A DNA stretch of 64,000 nucleotides from IMG/VR virus record IMGVR_UViG_3300043642_000037, positions 32,001-96,000 of that record; one strand, written 5' to 3'. The translations under genes and the position numbers were made by a program. The notes under the pieces are model-generated. The model worked only from the letters and a program-made list of their open reading frames with translations, made no database searches and was not told the DNA's origin. Below, piece by piece: positions 39,608-62,388 of the stretch (the first letter of the stretch is position 1; every line of letters starts with the position of its first letter). Origin of the DNA: a virus. Its lineage: Duplodnaviria > Caudoviricetes.

Positions 39608-39659
39608 GTGCGGTCTCCGTTGCAACGAGATGATAGGGCGGTTGTCGAAAATCCCCAAG

Positions 39660-45706: not shown

Positions 45707-48536
45707 AGCCCTCAGGGTCCTTCGCGCCCTGAACGCCACGCGCCAGACGAAGCACGATGTCCCCCAGGCTCTTGAACGTGGAGCCCAAGCTCTGCTCGAG
45801 AGCGTCGAACACCGACTCGCCCACGCGCTCCTTGAGATCCGACTCCTGCATCCACAACGTGAGCTGGACACGCGCGAGATTGTCGACCGCCTTCTCGAGG
45901 TTCGGCAGGTGCTGGCCGACAACCGCGTGAAGCTCCGGCGACTGCACGAGCGTCGCGACGGCGGCGACGTCGAAGATGTCCGGAGGCAGCGCGCTCGCCT
46001 GCTGAAGGAACTGCGGGTTGACCTCCGCGTCCAGCGCGTGCCCGTTGGGGCCGTCGACAGGCATCAAAGCGCCGGGCGCGGGGCCTTGTCCGCCCATCGG
46101 ACCCATGCCGGAAGCGCCCATGCCCTGATCACCCATCGGGTCGCTCATCGGGTCCGCGCCCATGGGCGGCATACCCGGATCTCCACCCATCGAAGCCGGA
46201 TCCATCGGTCCAGCACCCATGCCCGGAGCGCCGCCCATCGGGTCTGCGCCCATGCCTGGAGCGCCGCCCATCGAAGCCGGATCCATCGGTCCGGCACCCA
46301 TGCCTGGAGCACCACCCATCGGATCGCCGCCGGGCGCCCCCGGCATCCCGGGGTTCATCGGCTGGCCCGTGGCGAGGTTCGCCGATGACGGCGGCGCACC
46401 CATCATCTGGGTCTGCGTCGAGGCCGACATCGGTGCTCCACCCGCGATCTCGTGCGAGCGCTGGACAAGCGTGGCGAGCATCTGCTGCTTGTCCTGGAGC
46501 TTCTGCATCTCGGCTTGGATCGCCTGGTCCATCTCCATCGCCGCCAGCTCGACGGGCGACGGAGGGGGTGGGGCCGGAGGCGGACCCATCACGGCCTGTG
46601 CCGCGCCGGCGGCCAGGTCGGGTTCGGGGGCGGGTTCTGCGGAGGCGGGCGGCTTCCGCTTCTTTCCGCCGCCGCGGTCGCCGCTCTTGTCGCCGCCCTT
46701 GTCGCCGCCCTTGTCGTCGTCAGCAGCCAGCTTGTCGACGGCCATCTGCGCGCGCGCGACCTGCTCGGTCGACACGACCCACGCGCGGGCCGAGCCGTCT
46801 CGCGTCGCCTGGTCGAGCAGCATGCCGGCGGCCGCGACCTTGATTCCGTAGTCGGCCGCGACCTTGCGGAGAGCCTGCACGCGACCGACACCGGGACGGC
46901 CGTCGACGGAGAACTGCCGAGCCCCCGCGTCTTTGATCGACACCTTTCGCGCTCCGACCGCGGCGAGCGACGACGACACGCATCGCGCCAGGTCGTGCGC
47001 CGACTGGAACCACGCCCTCTCGTCGAGGCGCTCCCGCAACGGAATCCATATGAAGTCAGGCGGGATGTACACCACGTCCGCGCCCTTCGGCATCACGATT
47101 CCGCCGAGCGGGCTGCGCGGGTCCGTGACCAGCGTTTTTTCCTCGGTGAATCCGCGCACCGCGGTGACCCGCATGCGGCGAACGCCGTCGGCGCCGGTGG
47201 TGACCGACTTGATGTCGAGCGGGATGGTGGCCTGGAACGTCGAGCCCTTCTGGCGCACGAACAGGCCCTTGCCCGCGCGCGGCTGACCGTCGACGTCCTT
47301 GAACAAGCGCTTGTGCAGCGGGCCGGACAGCTCGTCCGCGACCGAGTCGCGACCGACCAGGCGATCCGGCTCGATGTAGTCCCCGTCGCCGAACACGGCC
47401 ACGTACTTCGAGACGTTCCACCGCCTGCGCGTGACGTAGTCGGTCTCGTCGGGCCTGCCCATCGGGTAGACCTTGTTGGCGCTGCGTCCGACGCCGCCGG
47501 GGCGACGCTCGTTGAGCAGGGGGTTGTGGCCCGCGACGGCAGGACGTCGCCCGTACTGCGTTCCCTCCCCGAGGACGTCGATCGGGTCGGAGACAACGAG
47601 CGCCGGACGCTCCTTGCCCGTGGACTCGTAGAGAACGTACACACCCGGCTGGTTCGGCTCGATCCAGCGCTCGTAGGGCTGGACCTGCACGGTCAGGTTG
47701 TGGGACGCGCGGTCGTCGCGAACCGCGTAGCCCTCGCGACGAACCCCGGCGTACGCCTCGCCCGCCTTGTCGCCGAACATGCGATGGAACTCCGACGGGG
47801 TGGTGTCCTTGTCGGCGATCCACAGCGCGCCGCCGAAGCTCTGCTTGGCGGCGACTTTCTCGAGGCCGGGGCGCAAGGCGTGCGACAGCTCCGACATGCC
47901 GTACGCGGCCGCGGCTGCCTTCAGGATGCGAGGATTGTGCGCGAGCACGTGTTGAAAGGCCGACTTGACGCGGTTGGACGCGGACCGCAGAAGAGGCAAA
48001 AGCAACTCGGGCTGCTTGTCGTCGCCCTCCTTGGTCAGGTTACTCGGCGACATGACCTGCTCGAGGTCCAGCATGGCTGACGCGTAGGAGAACCTGCCCG
48101 TGATGGGCGGCACCACGATGTTCCGTATGTCGACGTCCGTGTACAGCGTCTCGGGCGTCTTCACGCCGGTTCCCAGCGACGCCAGCCCGGCCTTGGCTAG
48201 CTCGTCCAGCCACCCCTTGTTGAGGGGGAGGAACATGTTGAGTGCCTTGTGGTACATGATGTCCAGCGGCTTGATCGCGCTGTTGGACATCACGACGGGG
48301 ACGTACAGCGACTGGCCGTGGCGCGAGACTACGAAGGCGCCCACGCCGTAGCCCTTGTCGACGTCGGTCGACAGGACCTTGAAGGTCACCACGTCCGGGA
48401 CCAGGTCCGGGACCCTCTGCGTGAGCAGCTGGTACGCCATCTCGCTCAGTCCGGACTCGAACAAGCTGGTGGCCTGGTCGGGACTTTGGCCCGTTCCTCC
48501 TTGGAGTTGCTGCATGCGCGGGCTGAGCGGGGGCAT
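45693..48536 (-). CDS. Large head-module protein with an M/G/P-rich repeat region
   Basis: 947 aa; GAPGMGAGPMDPASMG repeats (~46130-46360); several K-x-A sites. Confidence 0.75.
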   Translation of the reverse strand: MPPLSPRMQQLQGGTGQSPDQATSLFESGLSEMAYQLLTQRVPDLVPDVVTFKVLSTDVDKGYGVGAFVVSRHGQSLYVPVVMSNSAIKPLDIMYHKALNMFLPLNKGWLDELAKAGLASLGTGVKTPETLYTDVDIRNIVVPPITGRFSYASAMLDLEQVMSPSNLTKEGDDKQPELLLPLLRSASNRVKSAFQHVLAHNPRILKAAAAAYGMSELSHALRPGLEKVAAKQSFGGALWIADKDTTPSEFHRMFGDKAGEAYAGVRREGYAVRDDRASHNLTVQVQPYERWIEPNQPGVYVLYESTGKERPALVVSDPIDVLGEGTQYGRRPAVAGHNPLLNERRPGGVGRSANKVYPMGRPDETDYVTRRRWNVSKYVAVFGDGDYIEPDRLVGRDSVADELSGPLHKRLFKDVDGQPRAGKGLFVRQKGSTFQATIPLDIKSVTTGADGVRRMRVTAVRGFTEEKTLVTDPRSPLGGIVMPKGADVVYIPPDFIWIPLRERLDERAWFQSAHDLARCVSSSLAAVGARKVSIKDAGARQFSVDGRPGVGRVQALRKVAADYGIKVAAAGMLLDQATRDGSARAWVVSTEQVARAQMAVDKLAADDDKGGDKGGDKSGDRGGGKKRKPPASAEPAPEPDLAAGAAQAVMGPPPAPPPPSPVELAAMEMDQAIQAEMQKLQDKQQMLATLVQRSHEIAGGAPMSASTQTQMMGAPPSSANLATGQPMNPGMPGAPGGDPMGGAPGMGAGPMDPASMGGAPGMGADPMGGAPGMGAGPMDPASMGGDPGMPPMGADPMSDPMGDQGMGASGMGPMGGQGPAPGALMPVDGPNGHALDAEVNPQFLQQASALPPDIFDVAAVATLVQSPELHAVVGQHLPNLEKAVDNLARVQLTLWMQESDLKERVGESVFDALEQSLGSTFKSLGDIVLRLARGVQGAKDPEGYATP

Positions 48537-48546
48537 TGGTTCCTTG

Positions 48547-48747
48547 CTACGTGGCGGGAAAGCTCACAACTTTTGGGATGTTCGCATCGGGAATGGCTCT
48601 TGCCTTCTCGACCTCGACGACCTTCTTGGCGTGCTCATGTCCCAGCGTGTGCGTTGCGATCTCGGCGCTCGGCCTCCGGTGATGGTCGTGTGCGAGATGA
48701 TGTTCGATCTGCCGGAGGCCCTCGTGACGGACGTGTCGCGGCAGCAC
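48547..48747 (-). CDS. Small His-rich protein
   Basis: 66-aa ORF filling the gap between two genes. Confidence 0.5.
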   Translation of the reverse strand: MLPRHVRHEGLRQIEHHLAHDHHRRPSAEIATHTLGHEHAKKVVEVEKARAIPDANIPKVVSFPAT

Positions 48748-48750
48748 GGA

Positions 48751-50088
48751 CTACCTCGTGCCGGCTCGCATGGCGTGCTCGATGCGCCGGACGTGGTCGC
48801 GCATCGCCGCCTCCTTGCCCTTCTCGTCGTCGCCGTCCTTGTCGTCCTTGTCGTCTTTCTTCGCGAAGGGGTTCTCACCCTTCTTGTCGTCCTTGTCGTC
48901 GTCCTTCTTCTCGCCCTTGTCCTCCTCCTTGCGCATGAAGAACGGCAGACCGCTCTCCTCGGCGGCCTTGCTCTGGTTGTTCTTGCGGCCGTCGTAGGCG
49001 CCCGGGCGCGAGTGGGTCGCGTCGGAGCTGTGCTGCGCGTACCCGTCGGACCGCGAGCCCGGCGGAACCGCGGCGGGCGCCGCCGCCGCCGTGCGCTCCT
49101 GGACGGAGGTCTGCAGGCCCGTGAGGTAGGCGGCCTTCTCGGCGACCTGCATTCCCATGCACGCGCGGACGTGAGCCACCTTCTCGTCCTCGGACAGGGA
49201 GGCGGGAATGTAGGGGAAGCACTCGGCCGCCGTCTTCTTGAAGACGGCGATCCACGGGTCCTCGGCCGCGGCCTTCGACGAGTGCTGAGTGACCGAGTTC
49301 GATCCGCTCGGCGACTCGCTGGGACCGTTGGGCTGCGGGGTCTCGCGACCGATGATCGCCGGGCCCTTGGCCTGGCTCATCAGTTCGCCGAGTCCGCCCT
49401 GCATGGGGAGCACGGCGTATCCGGATGGACGCTGCGACATGTCCATCTTGCCCTCCGCGGTGGTCGGCTCCTTGTTGCCCTTGTCCCCACCGAGGATGGT
49501 GGTGCCCTCCGCGATCTTCCGCATCATGTCGGCGAGCGACGCGGTCCTGGACTGCTCGGTCACCGAGTTCTCTCCCGAGGGAGACTCGTGCGGGCGGTTC
49601 GGCTGGTCCTGCTCCTTGCCGACCGCCCCGGCGCGGGTGTCGACCTCGGTCTTACCGAGGCTGTTCTCGGCGTAGCCGGGCGGGCGCTGCGCCGCGTCCA
49701 TCTTGGTCTCGCCCTGACCCGACTCGGCCTGCGTGTTGCCCTTGTCGCCGCCCTCGATCGTGCTGCCCTCCGCGCGCTTCTCGGCTTCCTCCATCAGGTG
49801 CGTGGCGTTGGCCTGCGCGATCTTCTCGAGGTCGGCCTGGTTCTCGACGCGGTTGAACGAGGCGGCCTTGAAGCCGGGCCGCTGCTGGCGGATCCTGTTC
49901 GACGCGTCGATGACCGTGTTCGCGATCTTCGCCGTCGCGTCCCCGGGGCTCGCGGGATCGAAGTCCAGCTGGTCCGCGACGTAGTCCGCGACCTTGATCG
50001 CGTCGCCGCCGTCCTCGAACTGGGCGCGCCCGCCCTGGATCACTGCCAGCGCGACACCGCGGGCGTATGCTTGCTTGAACATGGTCAT
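48751..50088 (-). CDS. Scaffold/inner-core-like protein with an internal duplication
   Basis: AGGAG SD; CCTATCAT motif; more than ten K-x-A sites; two GGDKGN...ESPSG.NSVT repeats. Confidence 0.75.
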   Translation of the reverse strand: MTMFKQAYARGVALAVIQGGRAQFEDGGDAIKVADYVADQLDFDPASPGDATAKIANTVIDASNRIRQQRPGFKAASFNRVENQADLEKIAQANATHLMEEAEKRAEGSTIEGGDKGNTQAESGQGETKMDAAQRPPGYAENSLGKTEVDTRAGAVGKEQDQPNRPHESPSGENSVTEQSRTASLADMMRKIAEGTTILGGDKGNKEPTTAEGKMDMSQRPSGYAVLPMQGGLGELMSQAKGPAIIGRETPQPNGPSESPSGSNSVTQHSSKAAAEDPWIAVFKKTAAECFPYIPASLSEDEKVAHVRACMGMQVAEKAAYLTGLQTSVQERTAAAAPAAVPPGSRSDGYAQHSSDATHSRPGAYDGRKNNQSKAAEESGLPFFMRKEEDKGEKKDDDKDDKKGENPFAKKDDKDDKDGDDEKGKEAAMRDHVRRIEHAMRAGTR

Positions 50089-50144
50089 CTAGTGCTCCTG
50101 GGTCGCGATCGTGTTTCGTTGTGGATGATAGGTCAGATCGTCGG

Positions 50145-50558
50145 TTATCCCAAGACCTTGGCCTTGGCCGCGCCCGCCGCCATCGGTGGAGACGGCGGGG
50201 CCGGAGGCTTCATCGAGGGCGGAGACATCGCCCCACCCATCGACTGGCCGTTGAGGGTCGGATTGTACCCGGCGGCGCCCGCCTGCATGTTGGACATCTT
50301 GTACCGAGCAAGAGCCGCAGCTTTGCCAGCTTCAAATGCGTTGTTCATGGGTTTGAAATTGTCCTCGAAGTATTTCTTGGCGACCAACCACTGGTCTGTG
50401 TGGTCTTTTGGATTTCGAGCGATCATGTCTCCGGACTTCGGAGAGCCGTTTTTTCGATCTGCGGCGCTGATGCTGACGTCTACAAGTCGTTCTTCTGGTT
50501 TATAGGGACGCAGCTCCGCTACGTCTGTTCGACGATACTTTTCAAATTCGTCTGTCAC
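50145..50558 (-). CDS. AT-richer phage domain fused to a helix-motif peptide
   Basis: KYRRTDVAELRPY...GDMIARNPKDHTDQWLVAKKYF then MNNAFEAGKAAALARYKMS. Confidence 0.7.
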   Translation of the reverse strand: MTDEFEKYRRTDVAELRPYKPEERLVDVSISAADRKNGSPKSGDMIARNPKDHTDQWLVAKKYFEDNFKPMNNAFEAGKAAALARYKMSNMQAGAAGYNPTLNGQSMGGAMSPPSMKPPAPPSPPMAAGAAKAKVLG

Positions 50559-51130
50559 GGAAGGTCCTGTCTGGGAGTGGTCCCCAACACGTGGTCCAGC
50601 CCGCGCCCGACGACGTGACCGAGGCCCCTGCCGACCCCGAGACCGATTGGGGTTCCAATCATGCCGCCGGCGGTGCCGCCGTACATCATGCCGGCAAGGC
50701 CGCCCACGCCGCCGAGGAGACGCGACATTCGGCCCTCCGAGGCGTCCTGGCGCATCATGCTCGGCAGCGCCGCGGCGGTCAGCAGGGTGCCCGCGCGTCC
50801 GGCGGCCTGCATGAATGGCCGGCCGGGCATCGAGGGCCACAGGACGTTGCGCCAGTGGAGAGAGCCGCCGGGTGCGAACGTCCTGGCGCCCTCGACGAAG
50901 GCGTTGGGTCCCTGCCCGAAGGCGACGAGCTTGGCGGTGCCGGCCGCGGAGTCGACGAGGCCCTGGCCCAGGTAGGCCAGCTTGGCGGCGCGAACCCCCT
51001 CGGTGAGGGCCTGCACGATTGTCGACAGCTCCGTCGAAGGTTTTGCATGTTGGTGCGGCCGATGTCCGTGTCTTGCGAAGTGTTCGCGCATGGTGTCGAC
51101 GGAGTACCCTGGGTCGTTCGGACCGAACAC
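50555..51130 (-). CDS. Glycine-zipper protein with a weak helix motif
   Basis: ALTEGVRAAKLAY; GGVGGLAGMMYGGTAGGMIG. Confidence 0.65.
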   Translation of the reverse strand: MFGPNDPGYSVDTMREHFARHGHRPHQHAKPSTELSTIVQALTEGVRAAKLAYLGQGLVDSAAGTAKLVAFGQGPNAFVEGARTFAPGGSLHWRNVLWPSMPGRPFMQAAGRAGTLLTAAALPSMMRQDASEGRMSRLLGGVGGLAGMMYGGTAGGMIGTPIGLGVGRGLGHVVGRGLDHVLGTTPRQDLP

Positions 51131-52908
51131 TAGTACCTTCCTTCCGGGCCCTGCCCGAACTCGGTTCCGGCGGCGTACGCCGGAACGGGCGAGTAGCCGT
51201 GAACGTCGGCGTGGTCGCCGCGGTGGGCGCCGGCCAGCAGGCTCTCCTTCAGGTACCGGTGACCAAGACGCGCCATCCAGTCTGGGTTCAGCAACGGGGT
51301 TCTCGACGCGGGCCGCATGAGCGGGGCCGCCATCGGAGCGTTGTCCGCCACGTTCACCTCGTGAACCCCGCGACGCGCGAGCACGCTTGCGACGTCGGGC
51401 GTCACCCGGGTTCCGGCGGTGAAGTGGAACGCGTCCTGCGCGAGCGTCTCGCCCGCTGCCTCGGCCAGGCCGACACGCCTGTGGGACGCGGCGAGCGCGG
51501 CGCGGAACCTGTTGTAGTCGATCACGTCGCCCTTCATGAAGGCGTCGTCCGGCCCCGGATCGATGATCTGGACGTGGGACAGCACGCTTCTCGCGAGCGT
51601 CTCGAGGTGGCGCTTGTCGACGTCCGCGCCGGCGCGCCGGTACACGTCGTGAAGAGCGTCGACCAGGTAGCGCCTGCCCTCGCCGAGCCCCTTGTGACGG
51701 ACGATCTCGTCGGGACGAGGCACGCCGTCCGACAGCGTGTCGCCGGCGAACAACGGCTGGCCTACGGCCACCGTCACCCGCTGGTCCGGCGGGACGTAGT
51801 GGCGCGACCCCTCGACGGTGACGTAGGCGCCTCCCTGTGGGGCGGGCTCGACGATCCCGACCTTGCCGTCCCTGTCCGCGAGCACGGCCTTGTGGAGGAA
51901 TGAGGTCGGTATCTCGAGGAGCTGGCGGACCCCCTTTATCCCCTCGAGCTGCTTCTTGTCGGTCGCGGCCGCAGCGACGCGGCCGCCGTGCTTGGCGTTC
52001 AGGCTGAACTGGGTCAACGGCTCACTGAGCGCCTGCGCCGCGCGCATGCCGACGTTGGTGCCCAGCACGTGCGGGTGTCCCGAGGGGTCGAGACCCTGGC
52101 AGCGCTGGCAGATGCCGTGCGGCGCCTCGCAGGTCATCGGCGATCGGACTGTGACGGGGTCCCCCTTCGCCGCGATTGACGATGCGAGCCCAGGAGTCAC
52201 CAGACGACCGTCGGTCAGGTAGCGATCGATCAGGTGCGGATCGGCCGCGGCCATCTCGATCCCGTTCCGCGTGCCGCAGTCGAGGGTCGTGATGAGCTTG
52301 TCGCCCATATTGTTGACGAGGATCTTCGCCAGGTCCCCCGGCTCGACGACCGAGATGTTCGACCTCACCGCGTTGACTCGAGCCTCGCCGCCCGCGACCC
52401 AGGCGTCGGCGGGCGTCAGGCCCTCGGAGAAGCTCTTCTTGATCAACCAGGGCACCGTTCGGTCCCTGGAGTCCCTGGCCAGGACCGGAGAGCCGACCGC
52501 GCGCATGAGCTGGGCCGCGTTGCCGCGTCCGCCCGACCTCACCATCTCCCCCATCGCCCCCTTGTCGCGCTTGGCGAGCGAGAGCATCGCGTCCTGCGCC
52601 GCGAACAAGGCCTTCTCCCTGTCCGCGTGCGTCCTCGCCGCGTGGAAGGCGTCAACGTGCGGCGCCAGCATGGCGTCCCGCTCCGGGTGCGGCGCGATGT
52701 CGTCGAGCCCGACCGAGATGCCCTCCAGCGTCGCGACCTCGTCGCCGAGCCGCTTGAGCCTGGTGACGACCTCGGGATACGCGGAGGGATCGGACTTCGC
52801 CAGGCGAACCAGGCTGTCGTTGAGCACGCCCTTGGTCAGGGCCTGGTCGTCGTGTCGCCAGCCCTTCGGCAGCACCGCGTCGACGAGATGTTGTCCCAGC
52901 GTTCGCAT
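51130..52908 (-). CDS. Phage RNA polymerase, beta' C-terminal part
   Basis: SGGRG, SFSEGL, DCGT, VRSPMTC..GICQRC, AAQALSEPLTQFSLNAKHGG (bridge helix, Zn site, trigger loop). Confidence 0.9.
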   Translation of the reverse strand: MRTLGQHLVDAVLPKGWRHDDQALTKGVLNDSLVRLAKSDPSAYPEVVTRLKRLGDEVATLEGISVGLDDIAPHPERDAMLAPHVDAFHAARTHADREKALFAAQDAMLSLAKRDKGAMGEMVRSGGRGNAAQLMRAVGSPVLARDSRDRTVPWLIKKSFSEGLTPADAWVAGGEARVNAVRSNISVVEPGDLAKILVNNMGDKLITTLDCGTRNGIEMAAADPHLIDRYLTDGRLVTPGLASSIAAKGDPVTVRSPMTCEAPHGICQRCQGLDPSGHPHVLGTNVGMRAAQALSEPLTQFSLNAKHGGRVAAAATDKKQLEGIKGVRQLLEIPTSFLHKAVLADRDGKVGIVEPAPQGGAYVTVEGSRHYVPPDQRVTVAVGQPLFAGDTLSDGVPRPDEIVRHKGLGEGRRYLVDALHDVYRRAGADVDKRHLETLARSVLSHVQIIDPGPDDAFMKGDVIDYNRFRAALAASHRRVGLAEAAGETLAQDAFHFTAGTRVTPDVASVLARRGVHEVNVADNAPMAAPLMRPASRTPLLNPDWMARLGHRYLKESLLAGAHRGDHADVHGYSPVPAYAAGTEFGQGPEGRY

Positions 52909-52909
52909 G

Positions 52910-53323
52910 TCACATCGACGGCGGGTAGCCCGGGGGCGATCCATAGCCCTGCTGGGCCATCATGGCTCGACGTCGCGCCTGCTCATCCTGCTCCTGGTTG
53001 CGTCGGTGCCACATGTACAACCCGCCGGCGGCGAGCGTCGGCGCGAGCTTGCCCGCGTTTCCGATGGCCTGCTGTCGGTGAGTCGCGCGCGCGAGGTCCA
53101 TGCTCTGCGGTGGCACGGCCCCTGTGATCAGGGTGGGGTTCATCTGTCCGCCCAGGCCGCCTCGCAGGTTGCGAAACAGGTCCTTGGCCGCGCCGGCCTG
53201 ACCCGCGCCGAACGTCTTCAGCTTGTCGAGGATGCCGGCCGGCGCGACGTCGGCCATCTTGAACCTCGCCAGGGCGTGTCGGACGCCCGCATGCGCAAAC
53301 GGGGTGACGTGTGTCGTCGACAT
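52910..53323 (-). CDS. Small protein with the shared helix motif
   Basis: FAHAGVRHALARFKMA; LAPTLAAGGLYMW. Confidence 0.7.
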   Translation of the reverse strand: MSTTHVTPFAHAGVRHALARFKMADVAPAGILDKLKTFGAGQAGAAKDLFRNLRGGLGGQMNPTLITGAVPPQSMDLARATHRQQAIGNAGKLAPTLAAGGLYMWHRRNQEQDEQARRRAMMAQQGYGSPPGYPPSM

Positions 53324-53790
53324 CAGACGCCTCCAAACGCGGATGGGCCGACGCCCGATCGGCCGCCGGCGTCGCCCGCGGCCGTGCTGCTGGGCGGACC
53401 CCAGTTGGTCGATCGATCGAGCGGGTTCTTGGCCGCGACGGGCGCCCCCGGCTGCGGCGGCTCGTCGAGCGCCTGGAGCATTCGAGCCAGGTCCTCCGAC
53501 GATCGTCGATCGCCGTACTCGTTCGCCTTCTTGGCGTGGCCCTTCGCCGCCACCGTCTTGCCCGCCGCGTCGAACCCGTGAAAGGTCCGATCCGGGATCT
53601 TGAGCCGAAGCTCCTCCCCCGCGCGCTTGAGGCCGAAGCGCTCCAGCGCGGCGATCGCGCCGGACGCTCTCGCGTGCTTGACGTGCTCGGGCAACGTCAC
53701 GTCCTTGGGCGTGTGGTCCGCGAACTCCCGTGCCACCTCCGGGTGGTTGGCCCAGAGGTACTTTCGTTGCGCGTCGGATCGGAAGGGCAC
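53323..53790 (-). CDS. Small protein with an MPFRS.AQR N-terminal domain and the helix motif
   Basis: MPFRSDAQRKYLWANHPEVA...KHARASGAIAALERFGLKRA; CCTATACT at 53800-53807. Confidence 0.7.
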   Translation of the reverse strand: MPFRSDAQRKYLWANHPEVAREFADHTPKDVTLPEHVKHARASGAIAALERFGLKRAGEELRLKIPDRTFHGFDAAGKTVAAKGHAKKANEYGDRRSSEDLARMLQALDEPPQPGAPVAAKNPLDRSTNWGPPSSTAAGDAGGRSGVGPSAFGGV

Positions 53791-53810
53791 GGCACCCCAA
53801 GTATAGGCCG

Positions 53811-56800
53811 TCACTCGCCGATGTGGATATGGTCGTTCAGGGCAACCTCTCCGCGGTGATACGCGGCGCGGGCGTCCTGCAGGGACGCGAACCTCTTCGC
53901 CGTTCGACCGGAGGCCGGCTGGGTGGCCCTGTGGAGACCGAGCACGGCCTCCATGTCGGGCGCGACGTTGAGCATGCCCGGCCTTCGATCCGCGAAGATC
54001 TGGTGCGAGAGCGTCATCCGCTTGACGTCCTCCACGCCCGCGGGTGTCACCGGGGCGTGGATCTGCATCGCGTCGCCATCGTAATCCGCGTTGGTCCCTC
54101 GCTCAGCGAAGGGGTTGAGTGTGATCGTCTTGCCTTCGGTCATCCTTGGGTAAGCGCCGATGATGTTGTGGCGGGTCAACGAGGGCGCACGGTTGACCAT
54201 GACCGGGCGCTCTCGTGTCTCGTTGATCAACTCGTCTTTGGCGATCGGCGCTTTGTCCTCGACCAGCTTTTGCGCGTCGATAGCCGAGTAACCCCGCCGT
54301 ACGAGCCGTCCAATTACGAACTTGGAATACATGCCCCAGAGCATGTCGGTGGGTACGCCGATCTCATCCATGGATAGCGTGGGGTCTGGCGCGATGGTCG
54401 CGCGTCCGCTGACGTCCTGCTGGCGCTTCATGAGCTTCGATTGGAAGAACCCTGAGCCAGGCCGGCTTCCGGTGATCGTTGCGATGTATCCCTTGGCACC
54501 TCGGCGCAGCACCCCGGGGCTAACGGGGTCACCGACGCCGAACAACGCGCTGACAGCGTCGAACAGGTGTCTGCGCGGCGCGTGAAGCTCGGATTCCGGT
54601 AGGACCTTCGTCGAGTCCTTGAGCTGGTCGTTTGCCAGGAACGCGTCGCGGTACAGCAGGTTCGCGTCGCCGACCTGGAGCCTGCCGTCCTTGAGGGGAA
54701 GGATCGGTCGAATGATCGGCGGCGTGACAGGGACCTTGCTGATCACGTAGGCATCCGCGGGCTTCAATCCGTGCGCCTGGAGGGCCGCCAGGTACTTCGC
54801 CTGCTTGACCGCGTCGTCGAGCGCCGCGCCGCGCAGGTGCCTGGATCGATCGCGCAGCTCCTCGAGACGGGACGGCACGTCGATGCGGCCCAGCTCGCTG
54901 CGAAACCACTCTCCGCCGCGGCCGGTTCTCTCCGCGAACTCCTTCTGGGTCAGGCCGAGGAGCCGGCGCACGGGCTCCTCGAACACGGGGTTGACGATCG
55001 ACTCGGACAGCTCGACGTGCGACCACTTGGTGCCGGCCATTCCGCCGGTCCTCGCGGGGTCGAACATCCCGCCGGTCTCCGGGCGCAGGTCCTTGGCTCG
55101 AATCATCTTGCTCGGGTCGGGCAGCTCGCCGGAGGACATCTTCAGGATGTCCGCGTCGGTGAGCGGCCCTAGGGCCAGCCTCGAGCCCGCCTTGGAGATC
55201 TTGACGCCGGCGCCCGAGAGCATCGCGTGCAGCTTGTCGTACGCGAACGGCGTGCGCGGGGCGGGCGCGGGGGTGCCGAGCTGCACCGAGCGCCAGAACT
55301 CGTCGTTGCGCTGGCTCTTGATCGCCGCGGACTCGCGGAGCACGGCCCTCGCGTTGTGCGCGACGAGACCGTCGAACTCCATCTTGCCGATGCCCTTGGC
55401 GCCGTCGTCGCCGCCTCGCGCGGGCTGCTGGTTGTAGTCGTAGCGCTCGGCGCCGTGCGCCGCCCAGTTGCTGTCGGTCGTCTTGAAGAGCTTGAGGAAG
55501 TACGACTTGCCGACGAACACGCCCGGCACGCTCTTGCCCGTCATCGGGTCGACCACCGTCTCCTTGTCCGACAGGCCGTTGCTCTTGAGCAGGCCCTTGG
55601 CGTATGCGACGGCGTCCCGCGCGGCGAACTGCGGGACGAGAATGGGCTCGCCCCGGTGGTCGGCGACCTTGCCGAGCGACGCCTCGACCAGCTGCGCGGG
55701 GTTGATGCGCGTGATGATGCCGGCGCTGGTGAGGATGACGTCGACCGGGCGTCCCTTCTCGTCATGAATCATTTGTGCATCTGGGATTATTTTGGCGACT
55801 ACGCCTTTTGCGCCAAACCTGTTCGAGATCTTGTCGCCGACCTGCAGGGTCTCCTGCGTCTTGACCGTGGCGCTGTGGCGCTCGCCGGTCTTCGAGACGT
55901 CCGTCACGACTCCGGGGTGGTCGTGGGTCCACGTCTCGACGATTTCGGCGTAGGGACGAACGAGCGACTTGGAGAGCTTCCCCAGGAGCGCCGCGTCGCC
56001 CGTCGCCGTCTCGGGCCTCACGCCGATGATGATCGGGTCGCCCTTCTGCAGGACGGTGCCAGGCCGGGCGACGCCGCTCTCGTCGAGCGCGTCGTACTGC
56101 CGGGCGGAGTAGCGCCCGCCGAAGTACGCCCGATGCTTCTCCCTGCTGGTCTCGACGTCGCCCGCCTTGCTGAGCACGTGATGGAACATGTGCTCGGACG
56201 TGAGCTTGTCCGCCGCGCCTTGGCTGACCACGATCCCGTCGTTGGTGTTCAGGCCTCGGTACGGCATGTACGCGACGCGCAGGTTCGTCCCCAGCGCCAG
56301 CACACCGTCCCTGGTGAAGTTGGACTCGGCGAGCGGCTGTCCCTCGCGCACCAGGTCCCCCTCCTTCACCGTCAGCTTGTTGTTGAGGTAGGTCTTGGCC
56401 GCGAGCGGGAAGTCGTGATCGTAGTGCAGTCGAAGGGGGCCGTCAGCGGCGTGCTTCTCGCCGCCCGGAACGAAGTGAATGTAGTCGGCGTCGATCTTGT
56501 CGATGCGGCCGGCCGACGGCGCGGTCGGCACGATGAGTCGAACCATCTCGCGCTCGACCGACATTCCAGGATTCCAGGACTCGACCTGCACCAGAGGCGC
56601 CTCGCGATGCGTCAGAGGGAGCGCCTGGCCCTGGTGCTTGGACGCCATCAGGGCGCGGTTTCCCTGCATGCCGTTGAGGAGGGGAAGGAGGTTGGTCGTC
56701 GCGCCGTACATGTCCGACGCGTGCCGCACCTGGTGCGTCACCTCGGACGACGCGACGCGCTGCACGGATCCGTCCTTCATCACGTCGACGATTCGTCCCG

Positions 56801-58187
56801 CGCCGAGGTCGCCCCCGGGGAACGCGACCACGGCCCTCGCCATGTCCGCGGCCTTGAGGTACTCGTCCTTACCCGTCCGGACGTTTCGCACCGGCGCGTA
56901 CAGGTTGCCGTGATCGTCTCGTCTCGTGCCCACGCCGACGCGCAGGTCCACGCCGACCTTGAAGGACTCGGGCACGCGCGTGGGATCGATGATGCCGAGA
57001 TGCGTGGGATGGACGTCCCGCGCCTCGAGGGGAATGGCGCGCTCGGACGCGATCGCACCCTCGCCCAGCAGGGTGACGCGCGACGCCTCGTCGATAAGCT
57101 CCATCGGGTTTATCTGCATCGGGACCGCCGACAACGAGCTTGTCGTCAGGAACCCGGTGACGGCCCGCGTGAGAGGCGCGGCAGGCAGGGCGTCCTTGAT
57201 CGAGCCGCGGCTGGCGTCCAGCTTCCAGCCCAGCTTGTTGCGCATGGCCCGGGCGTTCAGCTGCAGGCGCTCCTTGACGAAGTCGTCCACCGAGTGGAAC
57301 GTCTTGAACGCGAGGCTGTCGCGGTCGTCCACGTCCGCGGCCTTGCGATGAATCTCGAGGATCTTGTTCGACGCGGCGAGCATCGCCTGTCCCGACGCCT
57401 TGTCGAACGGCGCGCCGAGCGTCACGCGGTTGACCTCCGGGTCCATCGACGTCGCGTCGAGGTACTCGCGAATGGCTCCGACGCGGGCCTCGGGCGTCGC
57501 GTGGTTCCGCTTGGCCGGGTGGATCAGGGCCTCGTAGAGACGCCCGACGTGGGCGTCAGGCGATCGAAAGGCGTCGCGATTGACGGCCGCGACCTGCGAT
57601 CCCCAGCTTCGAACGATGTCCGGATGCGGGACGTCGAGGGCGCGAAGGACCGGGTAGAGCGCGACGCGGGCGGTCGTGTGCCCCGGCTGCATGTACAGCA
57701 GGCCCTTCTCGGGCTCCATCATGACCTTGAAGTTCGCGCCCTTCGACAGGTTGAAGGCGGCCTCCAGCTCCTCGTTGCCCCGTCGCCTGACGTAGACGCC
57801 CGGCTTGGTCCGGAGCTGGTTGGACACCGAGTACTCGGTGCCGTCGAGAATGAACGTGTGGCGCGGTGTGAAGTAGGGAAGGTGGAGCAGCGTGAATCCC
57901 TGCGCGCGACTGGTCACCGCGCCCTGGGCGTCGCGCACGGTCAGGTCGCCGCGGACGCGCTCGGACAGCGTCTTTCCCTCGAGGATGGCCACCTTCTGCT
58001 CGCGCGACGAGAACTCGCGCGGCTCGACCCTGGCGTCGGCCAGCTCGACCGTCCACTTGCCCGCCTTCATGGGGAAGGCCCTGCCGAGCCCCTGAATGGC
58101 CGCCTGGCGGATCTTCTCCCGGCGCGTGGCGCTGTCCTCGAGGACCGGCCTTAGAACCGGCTGCGTTTTGGTAGAAGCATCCGTCAT
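53811..58187 (-). CDS. Phage RNA polymerase, beta fused to the beta' N-terminal (catalytic) part
   Basis: RDVHPTHLG, NRALMASKHQGQA, GDKISNRFGAKGVV, GKMEF; then DVSGRATI, NRAPSL, NADYDGD. Confidence 0.93.
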   Translation of the reverse strand: MTDASTKTQPVLRPVLEDSATRREKIRQAAIQGLGRAFPMKAGKWTVELADARVEPREFSSREQKVAILEGKTLSERVRGDLTVRDAQGAVTSRAQGFTLLHLPYFTPRHTFILDGTEYSVSNQLRTKPGVYVRRRGNEELEAAFNLSKGANFKVMMEPEKGLLYMQPGHTTARVALYPVLRALDVPHPDIVRSWGSQVAAVNRDAFRSPDAHVGRLYEALIHPAKRNHATPEARVGAIREYLDATSMDPEVNRVTLGAPFDKASGQAMLAASNKILEIHRKAADVDDRDSLAFKTFHSVDDFVKERLQLNARAMRNKLGWKLDASRGSIKDALPAAPLTRAVTGFLTTSSLSAVPMQINPMELIDEASRVTLLGEGAIASERAIPLEARDVHPTHLGIIDPTRVPESFKVGVDLRVGVGTRRDDHGNLYAPVRNVRTGKDEYLKAADMARAVVAFPGGDLGAGRIVDVMKDGSVQRVASSEVTHQVRHASDMYGATTNLLPLLNGMQGNRALMASKHQGQALPLTHREAPLVQVESWNPGMSVEREMVRLIVPTAPSAGRIDKIDADYIHFVPGGEKHAADGPLRLHYDHDFPLAAKTYLNNKLTVKEGDLVREGQPLAESNFTRDGVLALGTNLRVAYMPYRGLNTNDGIVVSQGAADKLTSEHMFHHVLSKAGDVETSREKHRAYFGGRYSARQYDALDESGVARPGTVLQKGDPIIIGVRPETATGDAALLGKLSKSLVRPYAEIVETWTHDHPGVVTDVSKTGERHSATVKTQETLQVGDKISNRFGAKGVVAKIIPDAQMIHDEKGRPVDVILTSAGIITRINPAQLVEASLGKVADHRGEPILVPQFAARDAVAYAKGLLKSNGLSDKETVVDPMTGKSVPGVFVGKSYFLKLFKTTDSNWAAHGAERYDYNQQPARGGDDGAKGIGKMEFDGLVAHNARAVLRESAAIKSQRNDEFWRSVQLGTPAPAPRTPFAYDKLHAMLSGAGVKISKAGSRLALGPLTDADILKMSSGELPDPSKMIRAKDLRPETGGMFDPARTGGMAGTKWSHVELSESIVNPVFEEPVRRLLGLTQKEFAERTGRGGEWFRSELGRIDVPSRLEELRDRSRHLRGAALDDAVKQAKYLAALQAHGLKPADAYVISKVPVTPPIIRPILPLKDGRLQVGDANLLYRDAFLANDQLKDSTKVLPESELHAPRRHLFDAVSALFGVGDPVSPGVLRRGAKGYIATITGSRPGSGFFQSKLMKRQQDVSGRATIAPDPTLSMDEIGVPTDMLWGMYSKFVIGRLVRRGYSAIDAQKLVEDKAPIAKDELINETRERPVMVNRAPSLTRHNIIGAYPRMTEGKTITLNPFAERGTNADYDGDAMQIHAPVTPAGVEDVKRMTLSHQIFADRRPGMLNVAPDMEAVLGLHRATQPASGRTAKRFASLQDARAAYHRGEVALNDHIHIGE

Positions 58188-58552
58188 GGGATCCTGAATG
58201 GCCTGATCTCGGCCTCCTCCGCGCCCCCGCCGCCACCCGCTGCGGGCTGCGGACGCTGAGCCGGCGCGTCAGTGAAGTAGGACAGGATGATCACGACTTC
58301 GCCCTCCTTGGTGAAGGTTCGATCCTCGAATCGGATCTTGCCGCGCCCGGCCCACAGCTCGTTGCAAAGCTCGTCGTACGCTCCGATGTCGCGCGGCAGG
58401 TTGAACACCTGGGTCGTCTGCCGGATCGGCAGGCGCGGGCCCTGCGCCAGGGCCTGCTGCGGAATGCCGAAGGGGCTCGCGATCGGGCTCTGCGTCATCT
58501 GGTTGGCCTGATCGATCACGTCCTGAAAGCCGCCCGGATTTGGCTTGTTCAT
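58184..58552 (-). CDS. Hypothetical protein
   Basis: Between portal and RNAP; TAGGAT 6 nt before ATG. Confidence 0.65.
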   Translation of the reverse strand: MNKPNPGGFQDVIDQANQMTQSPIASPFGIPQQALAQGPRLPIRQTTQVFNLPRDIGAYDELCNELWAGRGKIRFEDRTFTKEGEVVIILSYFTDAPAQRPQPAAGGGGGAEEAEIRPFRIP

Positions 58553-58556
58553 GCCG

Positions 58557-60353
58557 CTATCCTATCTGACCCGAGGCGCCGACGCCGTCCATGTCGGCCC
58601 CGCCCGCGGTCGGATCCTGTCCGGTCCGCGCCACGCTGATCGCGGCGCGGTTCTGCTGGTTGACCGCGTTCTCCATCCGCTCCTTGATCAGCGCGTACAT
58701 CGGCAGGTCGGTGGTCTGGAGCTGGTGCATCTGCGACTGGCGGGTGCCCTGGTCGAGCGGCATGAGCTGCTCCACGACGCTGTCGGCCTGGGCGATCATC
58801 TGCTGCGGATCGTAGGCGGCGCCCTGCTGGCCGAGCTGTGCCTGCGCGCGGACGCGGGCGCCAAGCTCGGTCTGGCGCTTCTGCATCTCGACCTGCGTCT
58901 CCGCGGCCATGCGCGCGTCGTCGAGCATCTCCTGCTTCCGCTTCTTGCGCTCCTCGATCGGGTCGACGTTGAACGGCTTGCCCATCGTGGTCTTGGAGAT
59001 CCAGGGGCCGCCCTGGGGATCCGCCATGTTGAGCTGCATCAGCAGCGCCTTCTGCTGGACGTCGTCGATGAACCTGAACGGCGCAAGCTCGGTCGGCATC
59101 GGTCCCCAGCCGAGCTTGCGGCCCGCGTTGTCGGTGATCCACTGCAGGAAGTCGTTGAGGTCGCCGGTCTGGTGGACGAGCTGGTTCTCCAGGACGCGGA
59201 GCTGGATGCCCGAGCCCATCGCGGAGAACCCGCCGTAGATGAACTCCTTGGGCAGGCCCATGGCCGCGATGATGTTGTCCTCGGCGGCCTGAACCTCGCC
59301 CAGCGTCATGAGGGCGCGCGCCTGGCCGCCGAGGTGCGTGACCTCCGCGGGGACCGGGGACCACATGATGTGCAGCGGGTCGCGGCGCCAGCGCTTGACC
59401 GAGTGCTTCATCTCGTTGGTCCAGGTCGCCAGGTTCATCGACAGGAGCGGGTCGGCGTTGCCGGTCGACTGCTTCGGGCTGACGATGCGAAGCGGCACGA
59501 TGTAGTCCAGCGCGATCGCCTCGTTGGCCTTGCGCAAGACCGCGGCGTAGAAAAACAACTTAATGGTCGACGCCAGCGGCGGGAAGCCCCACTGGGCCTC
59601 GATGCCCGCGGGCGCGTCCATCTTCATGTGGAAGACCTGGTTCTCCGCGAACTTGAAGATCTTGTCGTCCCTCATCGCCTTGAGGAACTCCATGGGCAGG
59701 CTGTCGATCAGGTGCTTGTTGTTCTTGGCGACCCGCTCCTTCATCTCCTTGGGGATCGTCCAGAAGTACTCGCTGTGCCCGGTGATCGGGTTGTAGTCGA
59801 TGTCGACCAGCTTGGGGTCCCACCGGATGATCGCGATCTTGTCGGGGCGCGTGATCGGCTTGTCGACGACCGCGTCGGGGCCGACGTCGACCTTGGTCCG
59901 GCACGACGCGCACTCGTAGCTGAACGAGAGCTTCTTGAGGCGGAACTTGTAGCTGACCGATCCGGCGTTGGACAGTTGGCGGCACGCCGGGCACCGCAGG
60001 AACCGCACGAACGGCGAGTACATCGAGTAGAAGGCGTTGCCGTAGACGAACTTGTCGATGGCCGCCTTGATCAGCCAGCGCTTGGTCTTGAGCTTCTTGT
60101 TGTGCAGGTCCTCGTACTTGGACTTGAGCCCCTCGTTGGTCGTGTCGTACACGATGTCGGTGATGGGGTACGTGCAGAACTTCTGCAGCGCGGCGAATAT
60201 CTGGCTGCAGTTGAAGTAGAGGTATTCGCACAGCCTGAAGAGGTCCTTCAGCTTCCTCGGCGCGAACGCCGTGAGGAAGTCGAACAACGGCGACCCGTGG
60301 CTCGACACGTTGTGGAAGGAGAGATCTGCGGCACCGGGATCGCTGTCCAGCAT
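58557..60353 (-). CDS. Portal protein (probable) with a Zn-ribbon insert
   Basis: About 600 aa at the head of the virion module; WGFPPL...VLRKANEAIA...IIAAMGLPKEFIYGG; CPAC...CASC. Confidence 0.7.
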   Translation of the reverse strand: MLDSDPGAADLSFHNVSSHGSPLFDFLTAFAPRKLKDLFRLCEYLYFNCSQIFAALQKFCTYPITDIVYDTTNEGLKSKYEDLHNKKLKTKRWLIKAAIDKFVYGNAFYSMYSPFVRFLRCPACRQLSNAGSVSYKFRLKKLSFSYECASCRTKVDVGPDAVVDKPITRPDKIAIIRWDPKLVDIDYNPITGHSEYFWTIPKEMKERVAKNNKHLIDSLPMEFLKAMRDDKIFKFAENQVFHMKMDAPAGIEAQWGFPPLASTIKLFFYAAVLRKANEAIALDYIVPLRIVSPKQSTGNADPLLSMNLATWTNEMKHSVKRWRRDPLHIMWSPVPAEVTHLGGQARALMTLGEVQAAEDNIIAAMGLPKEFIYGGFSAMGSGIQLRVLENQLVHQTGDLNDFLQWITDNAGRKLGWGPMPTELAPFRFIDDVQQKALLMQLNMADPQGGPWISKTTMGKPFNVDPIEERKKRKQEMLDDARMAAETQVEMQKRQTELGARVRAQAQLGQQGAAYDPQQMIAQADSVVEQLMPLDQGTRQSQMHQLQTTDLPMYALIKERMENAVNQQNRAAISVARTGQDPTAGGADMDGVGASGQIG

Positions 60354-60426
60354 GGGGATGTTTATCCTATAAACTTTGTAGACATTGCCGCGCGCGTCGT
60401 GTAACGGTGCGCAGGAGGTTTTCCGC

Positions 60427-62388
60427 GTGAACCTTGAGATTCGAGTCGGCGCCGCGGGCAACGGGACGCCCGTGTTCATGGCGACCGGAAGCCACCCGGC
60501 GCTGGGTCGCCCGTTCGGGGCGGTCTACGACTCCGGTCGTCGGCTCTGGATGTACCCGGCGTTCTACCCGGCCTCGAAGAAGGTGCTGGCCGACCTGGAC
60601 GTGATGTCCAAGGACTTCCACGTCACGTTCTCCGATGTCGCGCGGCGCCACGTTGGGGATCTCGAGCACGTCGAGGAGAGTGTAGCGAATCGAGCGCTCC
60701 CCGTGGGGTTCGAGTACGTGACGCGGCCCTACGATCACCAGGTCCTGGGGCTGTGCCACGCGTGGTGGATGCTTCGTGCCGCGGTGTTCTTCGACCCGGG
60801 GCTGGGGAAGTCCAAGATCGCGGTCGACCTCATCCGGCTGATGCGGCACGTCGGCCGGCGCGGCACGGTCCTCGTCCTTGGCCCCCTGGTCACCGTGACC
60901 AACTGGGGTCGGGAGATCGACCGGCACTCCGGCGGCCAGCTCCGGTGGGTGATCCTTCACGGGTCCCCGGACGAGCGCGCGGACATCCTGTCCTCGATCG
61001 TGGAGTCGCCGCCGGACGTCGTGCTTCTCACGTACGACGTGGCCCGCGTGATGTCCGTCGACCTCGTGCGACGGGTGCCGTACGAGGCGATCATATGCGA
61101 CGAGTCCCATCTGGTGAAGTCGTGGGACTCGGGTAGGACGGTCGCGACCTACGACATCGCGCAGAAGGCGTCCCGGCGGGTCCTGATGACGGGGTCCCCG
61201 ACGCAGGGAGACCCGCGGGACACGTACGGCCAGTACAAGATCCTCGGCGACTGCTTCATGCCGGAGGACTACGCGCGGTTCAAGCGCCAGTTCCTGGTGA
61301 CGCCGAGCCCGCGGTCCCACGCGGTCACCGGGTTCAAGAACCTGGACGTGCTGAACGGTCGGGTGACGTTCCTGTCGCTGCGCAAGACGAAGGAGGAGTG
61401 CCTCGATCTCCCGGAGCAGGTTGTCGTGGACGTCCCCTACTCGCTGTCCAGGACGCAGAAGGTGCTGCACAACCAGCTCGTCGAGCAGATGGAGGTCGAT
61501 CCCGACGTCCTCGCGATCCTCATGTTCGGGCGACAGGCGACGCTCCCGCCGGCGTCCCGCATGCCGCATCGCGCGGCCATGCTGCTCAAGCTGCTGCAGA
61601 TCGCGTCCGGGTTCCTCATCACCAACCCGATCGACGACGCGTTCTGCGACCAGGCCGAGCCGGGCGGCTGCCGGTACCTCGAGGCCTGCGTGGAGGCCCG
61701 GGTTCGCCCGCACACGCCGCGCTGCCTGGTCGACTCGTCGCGACTTCCCGACGTGCTCACGACGTTCGACGAGAACCCCAAGCTCGACGCGACGGAGGAA
61801 CTGCTCGAAACAATCCTGGTCAACCCGACCAACAAGGCGATCATCTGGTGCACGTTCGAGAACGAGCTGAATATCGTGTCCGCCATGCTCGACCGCCGAG
61901 GGTGGGGCCACGTCCGCGTCGACGGGTCCAACAGCCGGGAGGCCCAGGACCTCATCGATCAGTTCACCGTCGACAACGGGCTCCGCGTGTACCTGGCGCA
62001 GGTGTCGACCGGCGTCGGCGTGACGATCAACGCGGCGTCATACATGATCTACTTCGCGCTCCCGTTCTCGCTGATCGTCTACGAGCAGTCCAAGGATCGA
62101 AACTACCGGATCGGGCAGACGCGGAAGGCCACGGTGTATAGGATGCAGGGCGAGGGGACGCCTGAGCCGGCGATCGCGCGCCTTCTCGACGTCAAGATCG
62201 ACGTCGACGACGCGCTCACGCGGCGCACCGACTGCCTGCGCTGCGAGCACAATCCCACGTGCATTCCGGCGGGCGTTCACCCGTTCGACGCCGGGTGCTC
62301 CGTGTACAAGAGAAACATTGACAGACCGGTCACGCGAGCCCGCTCGTTCGAGGGGGCCGACGCGCCGGACGAGACGGAGGAACCTTGA
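60427..62388 (+). CDS. SNF2-family helicase
   Basis: FDPGLGKS, ICDESH, MTGSP, QSKDRNYRIGQ; GGAGG SD before GTG. Confidence 0.9.
   Translation: MNLEIRVGAAGNGTPVFMATGSHPALGRPFGAVYDSGRRLWMYPAFYPASKKVLADLDVMSKDFHVTFSDVARRHVGDLEHVEESVANRALPVGFEYVTRPYDHQVLGLCHAWWMLRAAVFFDPGLGKSKIAVDLIRLMRHVGRRGTVLVLGPLVTVTNWGREIDRHSGGQLRWVILHGSPDERADILSSIVESPPDVVLLTYDVARVMSVDLVRRVPYEAIICDESHLVKSWDSGRTVATYDIAQKASRRVLMTGSPTQGDPRDTYGQYKILGDCFMPEDYARFKRQFLVTPSPRSHAVTGFKNLDVLNGRVTFLSLRKTKEECLDLPEQVVVDVPYSLSRTQKVLHNQLVEQMEVDPDVLAILMFGRQATLPPASRMPHRAAMLLKLLQIASGFLITNPIDDAFCDQAEPGGCRYLEACVEARVRPHTPRCLVDSSRLPDVLTTFDENPKLDATEELLETILVNPTNKAIIWCTFENELNIVSAMLDRRGWGHVRVDGSNSREAQDLIDQFTVDNGLRVYLAQVSTGVGVTINAASYMIYFALPFSLIVYEQSKDRNYRIGQTRKATVYRMQGEGTPEPAIARLLDVKIDVDDALTRRTDCLRCEHNPTCIPAGVHPFDAGCSVYKRNIDRPVTRARSFEGADAPDETEEP

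Follow-up and report, generated by a model that had tools for sequence, protein, structure and literature searches.

A predicted two-chain phage RNA polymerase core, with β joined to the N-terminal half of β′, encoded among the head genes of a tailed phage

Cellular RNA polymerases (RNAPs) need an α dimer to bring β and β′ together. A 64,000-nucleotide stretch of an uncultured tailed phage (Caudoviricetes; positions 32,001 to 96,000 of IMG/VR record IMGVR_UViG_3300043642_000037; hereafter the window) raises the questions of how a bacterial-type enzyme might be built otherwise and why its genes stand where they do: between portal and capsid genes, all on one strand, with the portal as second gene upstream and the gene for the major capsid protein (MCP) downstream, the window encodes a β joined to the catalytic half of β′ and, as a separate gene, the remainder of β′ (Table 1). 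A sequence-only reading of the window, made without database searches, had described this arrangement, its position in the head module included, and had taken it for a virion-packaged RNAP of distinct architecture. The sequence features that it described all hold up. Its interpretation does so in part, in that the layout proves to be the norm of a whole lineage and packaging in the virion is probable.

The larger protein, P0001, is a complete β followed head to tail by the N-terminal half of β′ in one chain of 1458 amino acids (aa), just as had been claimed. Pfam profiles place Rpb2_3 at residues 358–412 and Rpb2_6 at 617–916 (146 bits), then Rpb1_1 at 1134–1216 (30.3 bits, below the cut-off of 39.7) and Rpb1_2 at 1325–1391; a search of the Protein Data Bank (PDB) aligned residues 1088–1456 to bacterial β′ from ~180 to ~550. 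On a residue map drawn from a family alignment with Salmonella and Acinetobacter β and β′, identity to Salmonella β plus β′ is ~25% over 1976 columns. The β part is without SI1 (225–356), SI2 (937–1048) and the 1126–1179 insert (Salmonella numbering), and the junction lies at P0001 ~1001 (nt ~55185), where the C-terminus of β runs into β′ at about residue 18 with no linker. The catalytic lysines of the β barrel (GDK...GxKG) are present in GDKISNRFGAKGV, which aligns to Salmonella β 1063–1075; the NADYDGD motif occupies residues 1366–1372 (nt 54072–54092, minus strand), and its three Asp are invariant in both family alignments. P0001 retains the β′ clamp helices and a flap-tip-like helix, the latter conserved family-wide, and its chain ends in a loop matching Salmonella β′ 553–572.

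The bridge-helix and trigger-loop half of β′ is indeed a separate gene, encoding P0002: Pfam finds Rpb1_5 on the longer reading frame (51130–52944), and the PDB search aligns the protein to β′ from ~610 onward, covering the F-loop, bridge helix and trigger loop. Of the two possible starts, the ATG at 52908 (592 aa), 1 base past the stop of the preceding gene for a 137-aa protein, is likelier than the ATG at 52944. P0002 lacks SI3 and the last 42 residues of β′, and it carries a 42-aa insert at residues 490–531. Its residues 15–597 are colinear with 1457–2072 of the single-chain relatives P0191 and P0224, directly past the P0001-like part, and the cut therefore removes nothing. With the second zinc site (DCGT, TCE, ICQRC), the bridge helix and the trigger-loop His in P0002, and the β barrel lysines and Asp triad in P0001, all catalytic elements are found; judged from sequence, the two proteins are the two chains of one bacterial-type RNAP core of ~2050 residues.

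Two further features of P0001 set the enzyme apart. The N-terminal Cys zinc-binding domain of β′, which the sequence-only reading had thought deleted, is absent: where Salmonella β′ has 54 residues with Cys4, the phage protein has the 22 Cys-free residues GGMFDPARTGGMAGTKWSHVEL (nt 55008–55073, minus strand), Salmonella positions 68–99 (the zinc finger) being deleted, and the deletion is common to all aligned family members and to the single-chain consensus. Rifampicin cluster I (E. coli numbering) reads Q513A, F514V, D516M, H526E and S531T. Established rpoB genetics is the basis for reading such substitutions as insensitivity; since the main rifampicin-contact positions are substituted, the phage enzyme is predicted to be rifampicin-insensitive.

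The split is not peculiar to this phage. In a tblastn search of phage records, Salmonella phage Arash (35% identity) and Vibrio phages D69, D148 and D181 (33–34%) matched over the full length in one piece, and a metagenome protein search gave at least 500 relatives on contigs of up to 197 kb, with β and β′ domains in one protein in all 120 of the 120 matches listed. The fusion is far beyond chance, a conserved gene family with no fewer than 500 close relatives. A census that used the junction-spanning fragment P0001 700–1458 as query, and 150 representatives of 50% clusters reaching down to 36% identity, was sorted by BLAST into 79 proteins split at the same place, 41 single chains running on into the C-terminal half of β′ (β′C), 6 fusions of another form and 24 fragments. 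None of the 150 was an unfused β or β′. At least 126 full-length clusters thereby carry the join, the single chains measuring 2000–2900 aa, and most of the IMG/VR loci, on contigs reaching 210 kb, have a portal homologue upstream of the RNAP. Among the isolates of the phage collection the single-chain form does not occur. A joined β and β′ is what a large and nearly undescribed lineage of phages normally has, and the split is the rule in a large clade, four sequenced isolates among its members, for which no family has been described; by the standard that the sequence-only reading had set itself, this tells in part against it.

Phylogenies with RpoB/RpoC and phage RNAPs suggest how this layout arose. 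We built a FastTree phylogeny (125 rows, 1405 columns; outgroup Salmonella and Acinetobacter β plus β′) and an IQ-TREE phylogeny under LG+G4 (52 rows, 1392 columns; Salmonella, Acinetobacter and four mReC-type phage polymerases as outgroups). The fused family forms one clade in the latter (support 100), apart from bacteria and from mReC (100). The earlier description of the enzyme as close to the bacterial one has to be qualified, at ~25% identity and on a branch of its own. Both trees gather the split forms, with this phage, Arash and D69, into one clade (support 99–100) that includes a single-chain exception, P0178, and place the single-chain forms as a basal grade (nodes 94–98). Because the split clade nests in the single-chain grade under a bacterial/mReC root, it is probable that β and β′ were first joined into one chain that was later cut once inside β′.

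Insertions of other kinds are found in the family as well. In P0178, P0196, P0222, P0265, P0276, P0280 and P0282 the matches to P0001 break at ~1372–1374, within NADYDGD, with large inserts beyond, which suggests that this active site is an intein hot spot; the family is rich in inteins, the NADYDGD site included, a LAGLIDADG domain and members of 1800–2900 aa having been seen. At this phage's own β′ cut, no intein was found. The intein richness of the family fits an idea put forward in PMC7598289, that mobile elements drive the splitting of phage RNAP genes. Six fusion relatives of ~1560–1940 aa (P0062, P0064, P0074, P0076, P0079 and P0083) carry a GNAT insert (PF00583, PF13508).

How does this design compare with known polymerases? 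The nearest relatives, Arash (gp206 and gp216; OQ632216, PMC10585845), D69, D148 and D181, have the same fusion (1525–1527 aa) and a separate β′C (606–609 aa); they share the order of portal, small gene and RNAP, are 33–35% identical over the full length, and have a syntenic capsid module. They differ in what lies between the halves: Arash has nine genes there, spread over both strands, and D69 has two small genes unrelated to the two found here. Arash also has AADYDGD in place of NADYDGD. The Arash paper labels the genes simply β and β′ and leaves the fusion unmentioned (PMC10585845). Single-chain RNAPs of uncultured phages (P0191, P0224; loci L012–L066) belong to the same family and have the same junction, zinc-finger deletion and portal neighbourhood; they are one polypeptide of 2000–2900 aa, whereas here the chain is cut at the loop near Salmonella β′ 553–572 and two genes are inserted. 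The enzymes of phiKZ and AR9 are also two-barrel polymerases without α or ω; their β′ is divided past the double-psi barrel, and one of the enzymes is carried by the virion (PMC7598289). Their β is made as two or three separate parts, none of which is fused to β′, whereas β is intact here; they have two paralogous sets and no σ, whereas this phage has one set and two σ-like genes; and their sequences are far more diverged, giving partial matches at 23–27% identity. The mReC RNAPs (Weinheimer and Aylward 2020, PMC7481178) are likewise bacterial-like, deep-branching and from uncultured tailed phages, but in the part of that paper's table consulted β (900–1520 aa) and β′ (900–1390 aa) are separate proteins; with separate subunits and a separate clade at 100 support, membership of this RNAP in mReC was rejected.

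Precedents for each half of the design exist in cells. Cyanobacterial and plastid RpoC1 (γ)/RpoC2 (PDB matches 8h3v_E and 8gzg_Z) divide β′ past the catalytic barrel, as here, and by our own coordinates the phage cut lies ~20–50 residues upstream of the cyanobacterial one; the phage split appears to be independent of it, descending from a single-chain phage ancestor. Helicobacter and Wolbachia rpoB-rpoC fusions join the C-terminus of β head to tail to the N-terminus of β′, and these cellular fusion enzymes keep α, ω, the zinc finger and an undivided β′. The phage design combines these two features known separately in cells, a Helicobacter-like join and a cut near the rpoC1/rpoC2 boundary. The virion RNAP of N4 and the gp62-type enzymes of crAss-like phages offer an analogy, that of a large particle-carried polymerase for early transcription. 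The N4 enzyme is a T7-like single-subunit polymerase. The crAss enzyme has diverged too far for rpoB/rpoC models to recognise it (PMC7481178), whereas Pfam RNAP domains give the present one scores of up to 146 bits; the design differs from the YonO enzyme, too. The literature search found no paper describing a β–β′ join in phages, jumbo-phage reviews being checked by keyword, and in the papers found the architecture is described for no phage group. Against this literature, a β left intact and fused to the N-terminal half of β′ (β′N), with β′C separate, is unusual, and the claim of a distinct architecture stands.

The source record, of which the window is part, is linear, 156,126 bp long, 67% G+C and ~84% complete by CheckV; the uncultured phage has a GC-rich genome of at least 156 kb. 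Profiles for α and ω (PF01000, PF01193, PF01192) had no match at E≤10 in this ~84%-complete record, and controls matched in 14/14 genomes. When the whole record was searched by tblastn, each chain retrieved nothing but itself, so that a second RNAP set is rejected for the sequenced part of the genome. A search of the record for a T7-like RNAP gave no match, but neither did its positive control. The sequence-only reading had recognised no α or σ gene: this is right for the window, and for α in the record, but two σ-like genes lie elsewhere in the genome. One encodes a σ70-type protein with regions 2 and 4, the other the orthologue of Arash gp10 (Table 1); the former was considered as the gp10 orthologue and rejected in favour of the latter. 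On large contigs the gp10-type σ occurs alongside the RNAP at matching identity levels.

We modelled a complex of P0001 1001–1458 (β′N) with the gp10-like σ, together with three controls. The pair scored 0.76 and the best control 0.00; among solved complexes 58 of 80 attain the 0.76 mark, as do 2 of 110 mismatched pairs, a rough calibration, since our own alignments were used. At least 60% of contacts are common to the runs, the predicted local distance difference test (pLDDT) of the partner is at least 69, and the modelled interface sets the β′ clamp helices (1176–1211) against σ residues 33–74 and 105–115. Contact between the clamp helices and σ region 2 is canonical in bacterial holoenzymes. 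Because the interface is this canonical one, the result may stem from resemblance to holoenzymes of known structure, and it speaks neither for binding by this pair nor for a preference of the σ for the phage over the host core. The gp10-type gene stands in a second structural block, G000:C1:132531-141832 (window-scale 100531-109832), which is syntenic with Arash gp4, gp6, gp10 and gp13 and has two open reading frames (ORFs) of ~1200 aa; the 1206-aa ORF ahead of the σ gene has a stop that overlaps the σ start.

Exactly two small genes, of 163 and 137 aa, separate the RNAP halves, and both proteins carry a helix motif, in agreement with the sequence-only reading: ASGAIAALERFGL in the former, and HAGVRHALARFKM near the N-terminus of the latter. 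The motif, G-x3-[AG]-h-x-[RK]-[FYH]-x-h, has 11 coding-frame copies in a six-frame scan of the 156-kb record, always on the minus strand, between window positions 11215 and 53661; the copies are confined to the structural gene block and are often near the N-terminus of small proteins, and a narrower form of the pattern gives 0.1 hits per shuffle. It may serve as a tag for capsid targeting or scaffold binding. Homologues hold the equivalent position in loci L006–L009 for the 163-aa protein and L006–L008 for the 137-aa protein, and both genes keep their place in relatives of 57–65% identity; in Arash and D69 the gap is filled by other, unrelated genes. Neither protein has an informative family match (only sub-threshold hits in the ESM Atlas), and for most structural proteins, as for the small genes, Pfam and PHROGs were of no use, the roles of the former being assigned by similarity to Arash genes only. 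It is more likely that the two are head-internal proteins than polymerase subunits; that they act as loading adaptors is speculation.

What, then, is the enzyme for? We favour, at a probability of roughly 0.6, a late-made, probably virion-carried, σ-dependent RNAP for early phage transcription, predicted to be rifampicin-insensitive. In this proposal the covalent β–β′ join would replace the α-dimer assembly platform; the RNAP genes would be transcribed late with the portal and head genes from one tightly packed operon; the enzyme would be packed into the capsid alongside a phage σ-like protein; and after ejection it would use phage promoters to transcribe early genes without recourse to the host polymerase. 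Newly made enzyme, perhaps with the second phage σ, may serve later transcription too, because the record holds only one β/β′ set. Packaging in this phage is probable on the strength of synteny and of one relative. Homologues of proteins from the Arash virion preparation map along the minus strand of the window (Table 1), and mass spectrometry of Arash virions gave 3516 spectra for Gp206 (the most detected protein), 1210 for Gp216 (the fifth) and 467 for the σ Gp10 (PMC10585845), which lends moderate support to presence in the virion.

Several observations weigh against this proposal. The sole proteomics comes from Arash, a 35%-identical relative. Its preparation held 116/272 proteins, including ribonucleotide reductases, primase and helicases, and no mention of a CsCl or cesium gradient was found in the paper (PMC10585845); because of these plainly non-structural enzymes, and with no gradient mention found, the RNAP signal could possibly be carry-over of an abundant late protein. 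In the family alignment no N-terminal targeting extension is visible on the RNAP chains, and the helix motif was found on neither of them. The missing part of the ~84%-complete record could hold α, ω or a second polymerase, the σ proteins could redirect the host polymerase instead, and the root on which the order of joining and cutting depends hangs on long outgroup branches, as the program warned.

The best surviving alternative takes up the first of these points: the RNAP would not be in the virion at all and would be made in the infected cell for middle or late transcription only, its detection in Arash being contamination by an abundant protein. Besides the character of the Arash preparation, it has in its favour that no packaging tag was seen on either RNAP chain and that the record holds one β/β′ set, whereas phages of the phiKZ type depend on a second enzyme that is not part of the virion (PMC7598289). 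We nonetheless regard it as unlikely, for the RNAP genes lie between portal and capsid genes in an overlapping operon across the clade, an enzyme whose synthesis is confined to that of the late structural proteins has to be carried in if it is to start the phage programme, and Gp206 has the highest spectral count of all Arash proteins.

Slightly less credible is the view that the two σ-like proteins redirect host RNAP and that the phage polymerase is σ-free, like the phiKZ and AR9 enzymes. Many large phages encode σ factors for the host enzyme (PMC7824862), and our complex model would probably pass with a bacterial β′ too, the interface being canonical. Against it, the gp10-like σ and the RNAP co-occur on the same contigs at matching identity, the gp10 σ was found in Arash virions with the RNAP, and the phage β′ keeps its clamp helices and the family its flap-tip-like helix. 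That the split is an artefact (a frameshift, an assembly error or recent pseudogenisation), or that a split intein rejoins the halves, can be dismissed in spite of the single-chain relatives and the common inteins, given that in 79 representative clusters the chain stops at one and the same residue, the gap is occupied by two conserved coding genes, the finished isolates Arash and the Vibrio phages have the same split, and the chain ends abut single-chain sequence with no room for intein fragments; with no intein remnants at the chain ends, trans-splicing was rejected.

Going further than the favoured reading, we can put forward only tentatively, as doubtful, that the lineage packs and ejects a complete σ-dependent holoenzyme and that, in this subclade, the two motif-tagged proteins help to load the halves into the prohead. 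If true, this would be the smallest known bacterial-type transcription machine (a one- or two-chain core without α or ω, plus a phage σ) and the first injected σ70-type holoenzyme. The family matters in other respects. It is a large natural family that dispenses with α by covalent subunit joining, tolerates a cut in β′ and still appears to use σ-type factors; its minimal bacterial-like polymerase of ~2050 residues is usable for studying assembly, initiation and drug insensitivity; it forms a natural series for the evolution of subunit boundaries, from separate subunits to a single chain to a re-split chain; and its cultured members (Arash on Salmonella, D69-type phages on Vibrio) make the packaging and early-transcription hypotheses directly testable.

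Table 1. Positions of the RNAP genes, their neighbours and related genes (window coordinates, save for the two σ-like genes, which are given in coordinates of the record)
Feature	Position	Strand	Basis or remark
Portal protein homologue, 598 aa	58557-60353	-	30% identity to Arash gp204 portal and D69_0259 product, E 2e-78 to 3e-91; ATG at 60353 (598 aa) likelier as start than the mechanical ORF's ATG at 60479 (640 aa)
122-aa protein, function unassigned, between portal and RNAP	58184-58552	-	ORF; G+C at third codon positions (GC3) 0.85
β–β′N fusion P0001, 1458 aa	53811-58187	-	ORF, Pfam, PDB, alignment
Small protein P0003, 163 aa	53323-53814	-	ORF; start overlaps stop of fusion gene
Small protein, 137 aa	52910-53323	-	ORF; its ATG overlaps stop of 163-aa gene
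β′C P0002, 592 aa	51130-52908	-	Pfam Rpb1_5, PDB, alignment; to 52944 if 604 aa
Major capsid protein homologue	36586-37530	-	37% identity to Arash gp226 MCP, E 2e-62
Divergent intergenic region, portal operon (-) versus SNF2-type helicase (+)	60354-60426	.	Sequence read
Arash gp218 homologue	45693-48536	-	Similarity
Arash gp219 homologue	45038-45922	-	Similarity
Arash gp220 homologue	44172-45038	-	Similarity
Arash gp222 homologue	~40.7-42.4 kb	-	Similarity, two pieces
Arash gp233 homologue	~31.7-32.1 kb	-	Similarity
Arash gp234 homologue	~29.3-29.7 kb	-	Similarity
Arash gp236 homologue	~26.1-28.1 kb	-	Similarity
Arash gp237 homologue	~23.9-24.5 kb	-	Similarity
σ with regions 2 and 4, 293 aa	G000:C1:98558-99439		Second phage σ, σ70-type
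Arash gp10 orthologue, 251 aa, region 3	G000:C1:132531-133286		33% identity, E 6e-31

From the portal gene to that for β′C, stops and starts on the minus strand overlap (GTGA, TGATG) or sit one base apart, and further structural genes follow downstream on the same strand. Because the genes overlap or abut, and no terminator-like site was found on the minus strand in window 48000–61500, the portal-to-RNAP genes look like one operon. The portal homologue had no match in Pfam and PHROG profile searches. The stop of the 122-aa gene overlaps the start of the RNAP fusion gene; its product has homologues at the equivalent position in loci L006–L009, and Arash gp205 and D69_0260 are small genes placed like it, with no detectable similarity to it. 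A nucleotide search of the RNAP region against 50,697 phage records gave no match.

The divergent gap upstream of the portal gene holds an AT-rich imperfect palindrome, TGTTTA-TCCTA-TAAACT at 60359–60375, which may be a candidate operator or promoter element of the RNAP-carrying operon; the adjoining plus-strand helicase (Pfam SNF2-rel_dom and Helicase_C) has AGGAGG ahead of its GTG at 60427. Sites of the form GTTTA-N5-TAAAC that resemble the palindrome also lie at genome ~4580, ~16650 and ~142960, and a scan of AT-rich islands gave no clear candidate for a shared early promoter.

Directly after β′C lies a 191-aa protein (window 50555–51130) with a weak match to a tape-measure segment among the PHROGs (phrog_794, E 1e-4). 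Farther downstream, window 39658–42524 has no clean ORF by GC3-based calling and its G+C dips to 0.625; structural protein gp222 of Arash matches two separate pieces there, 42000–42440 and 40680–40946, and an intein, intron or mobile insert may lie within the gp222-like gene.

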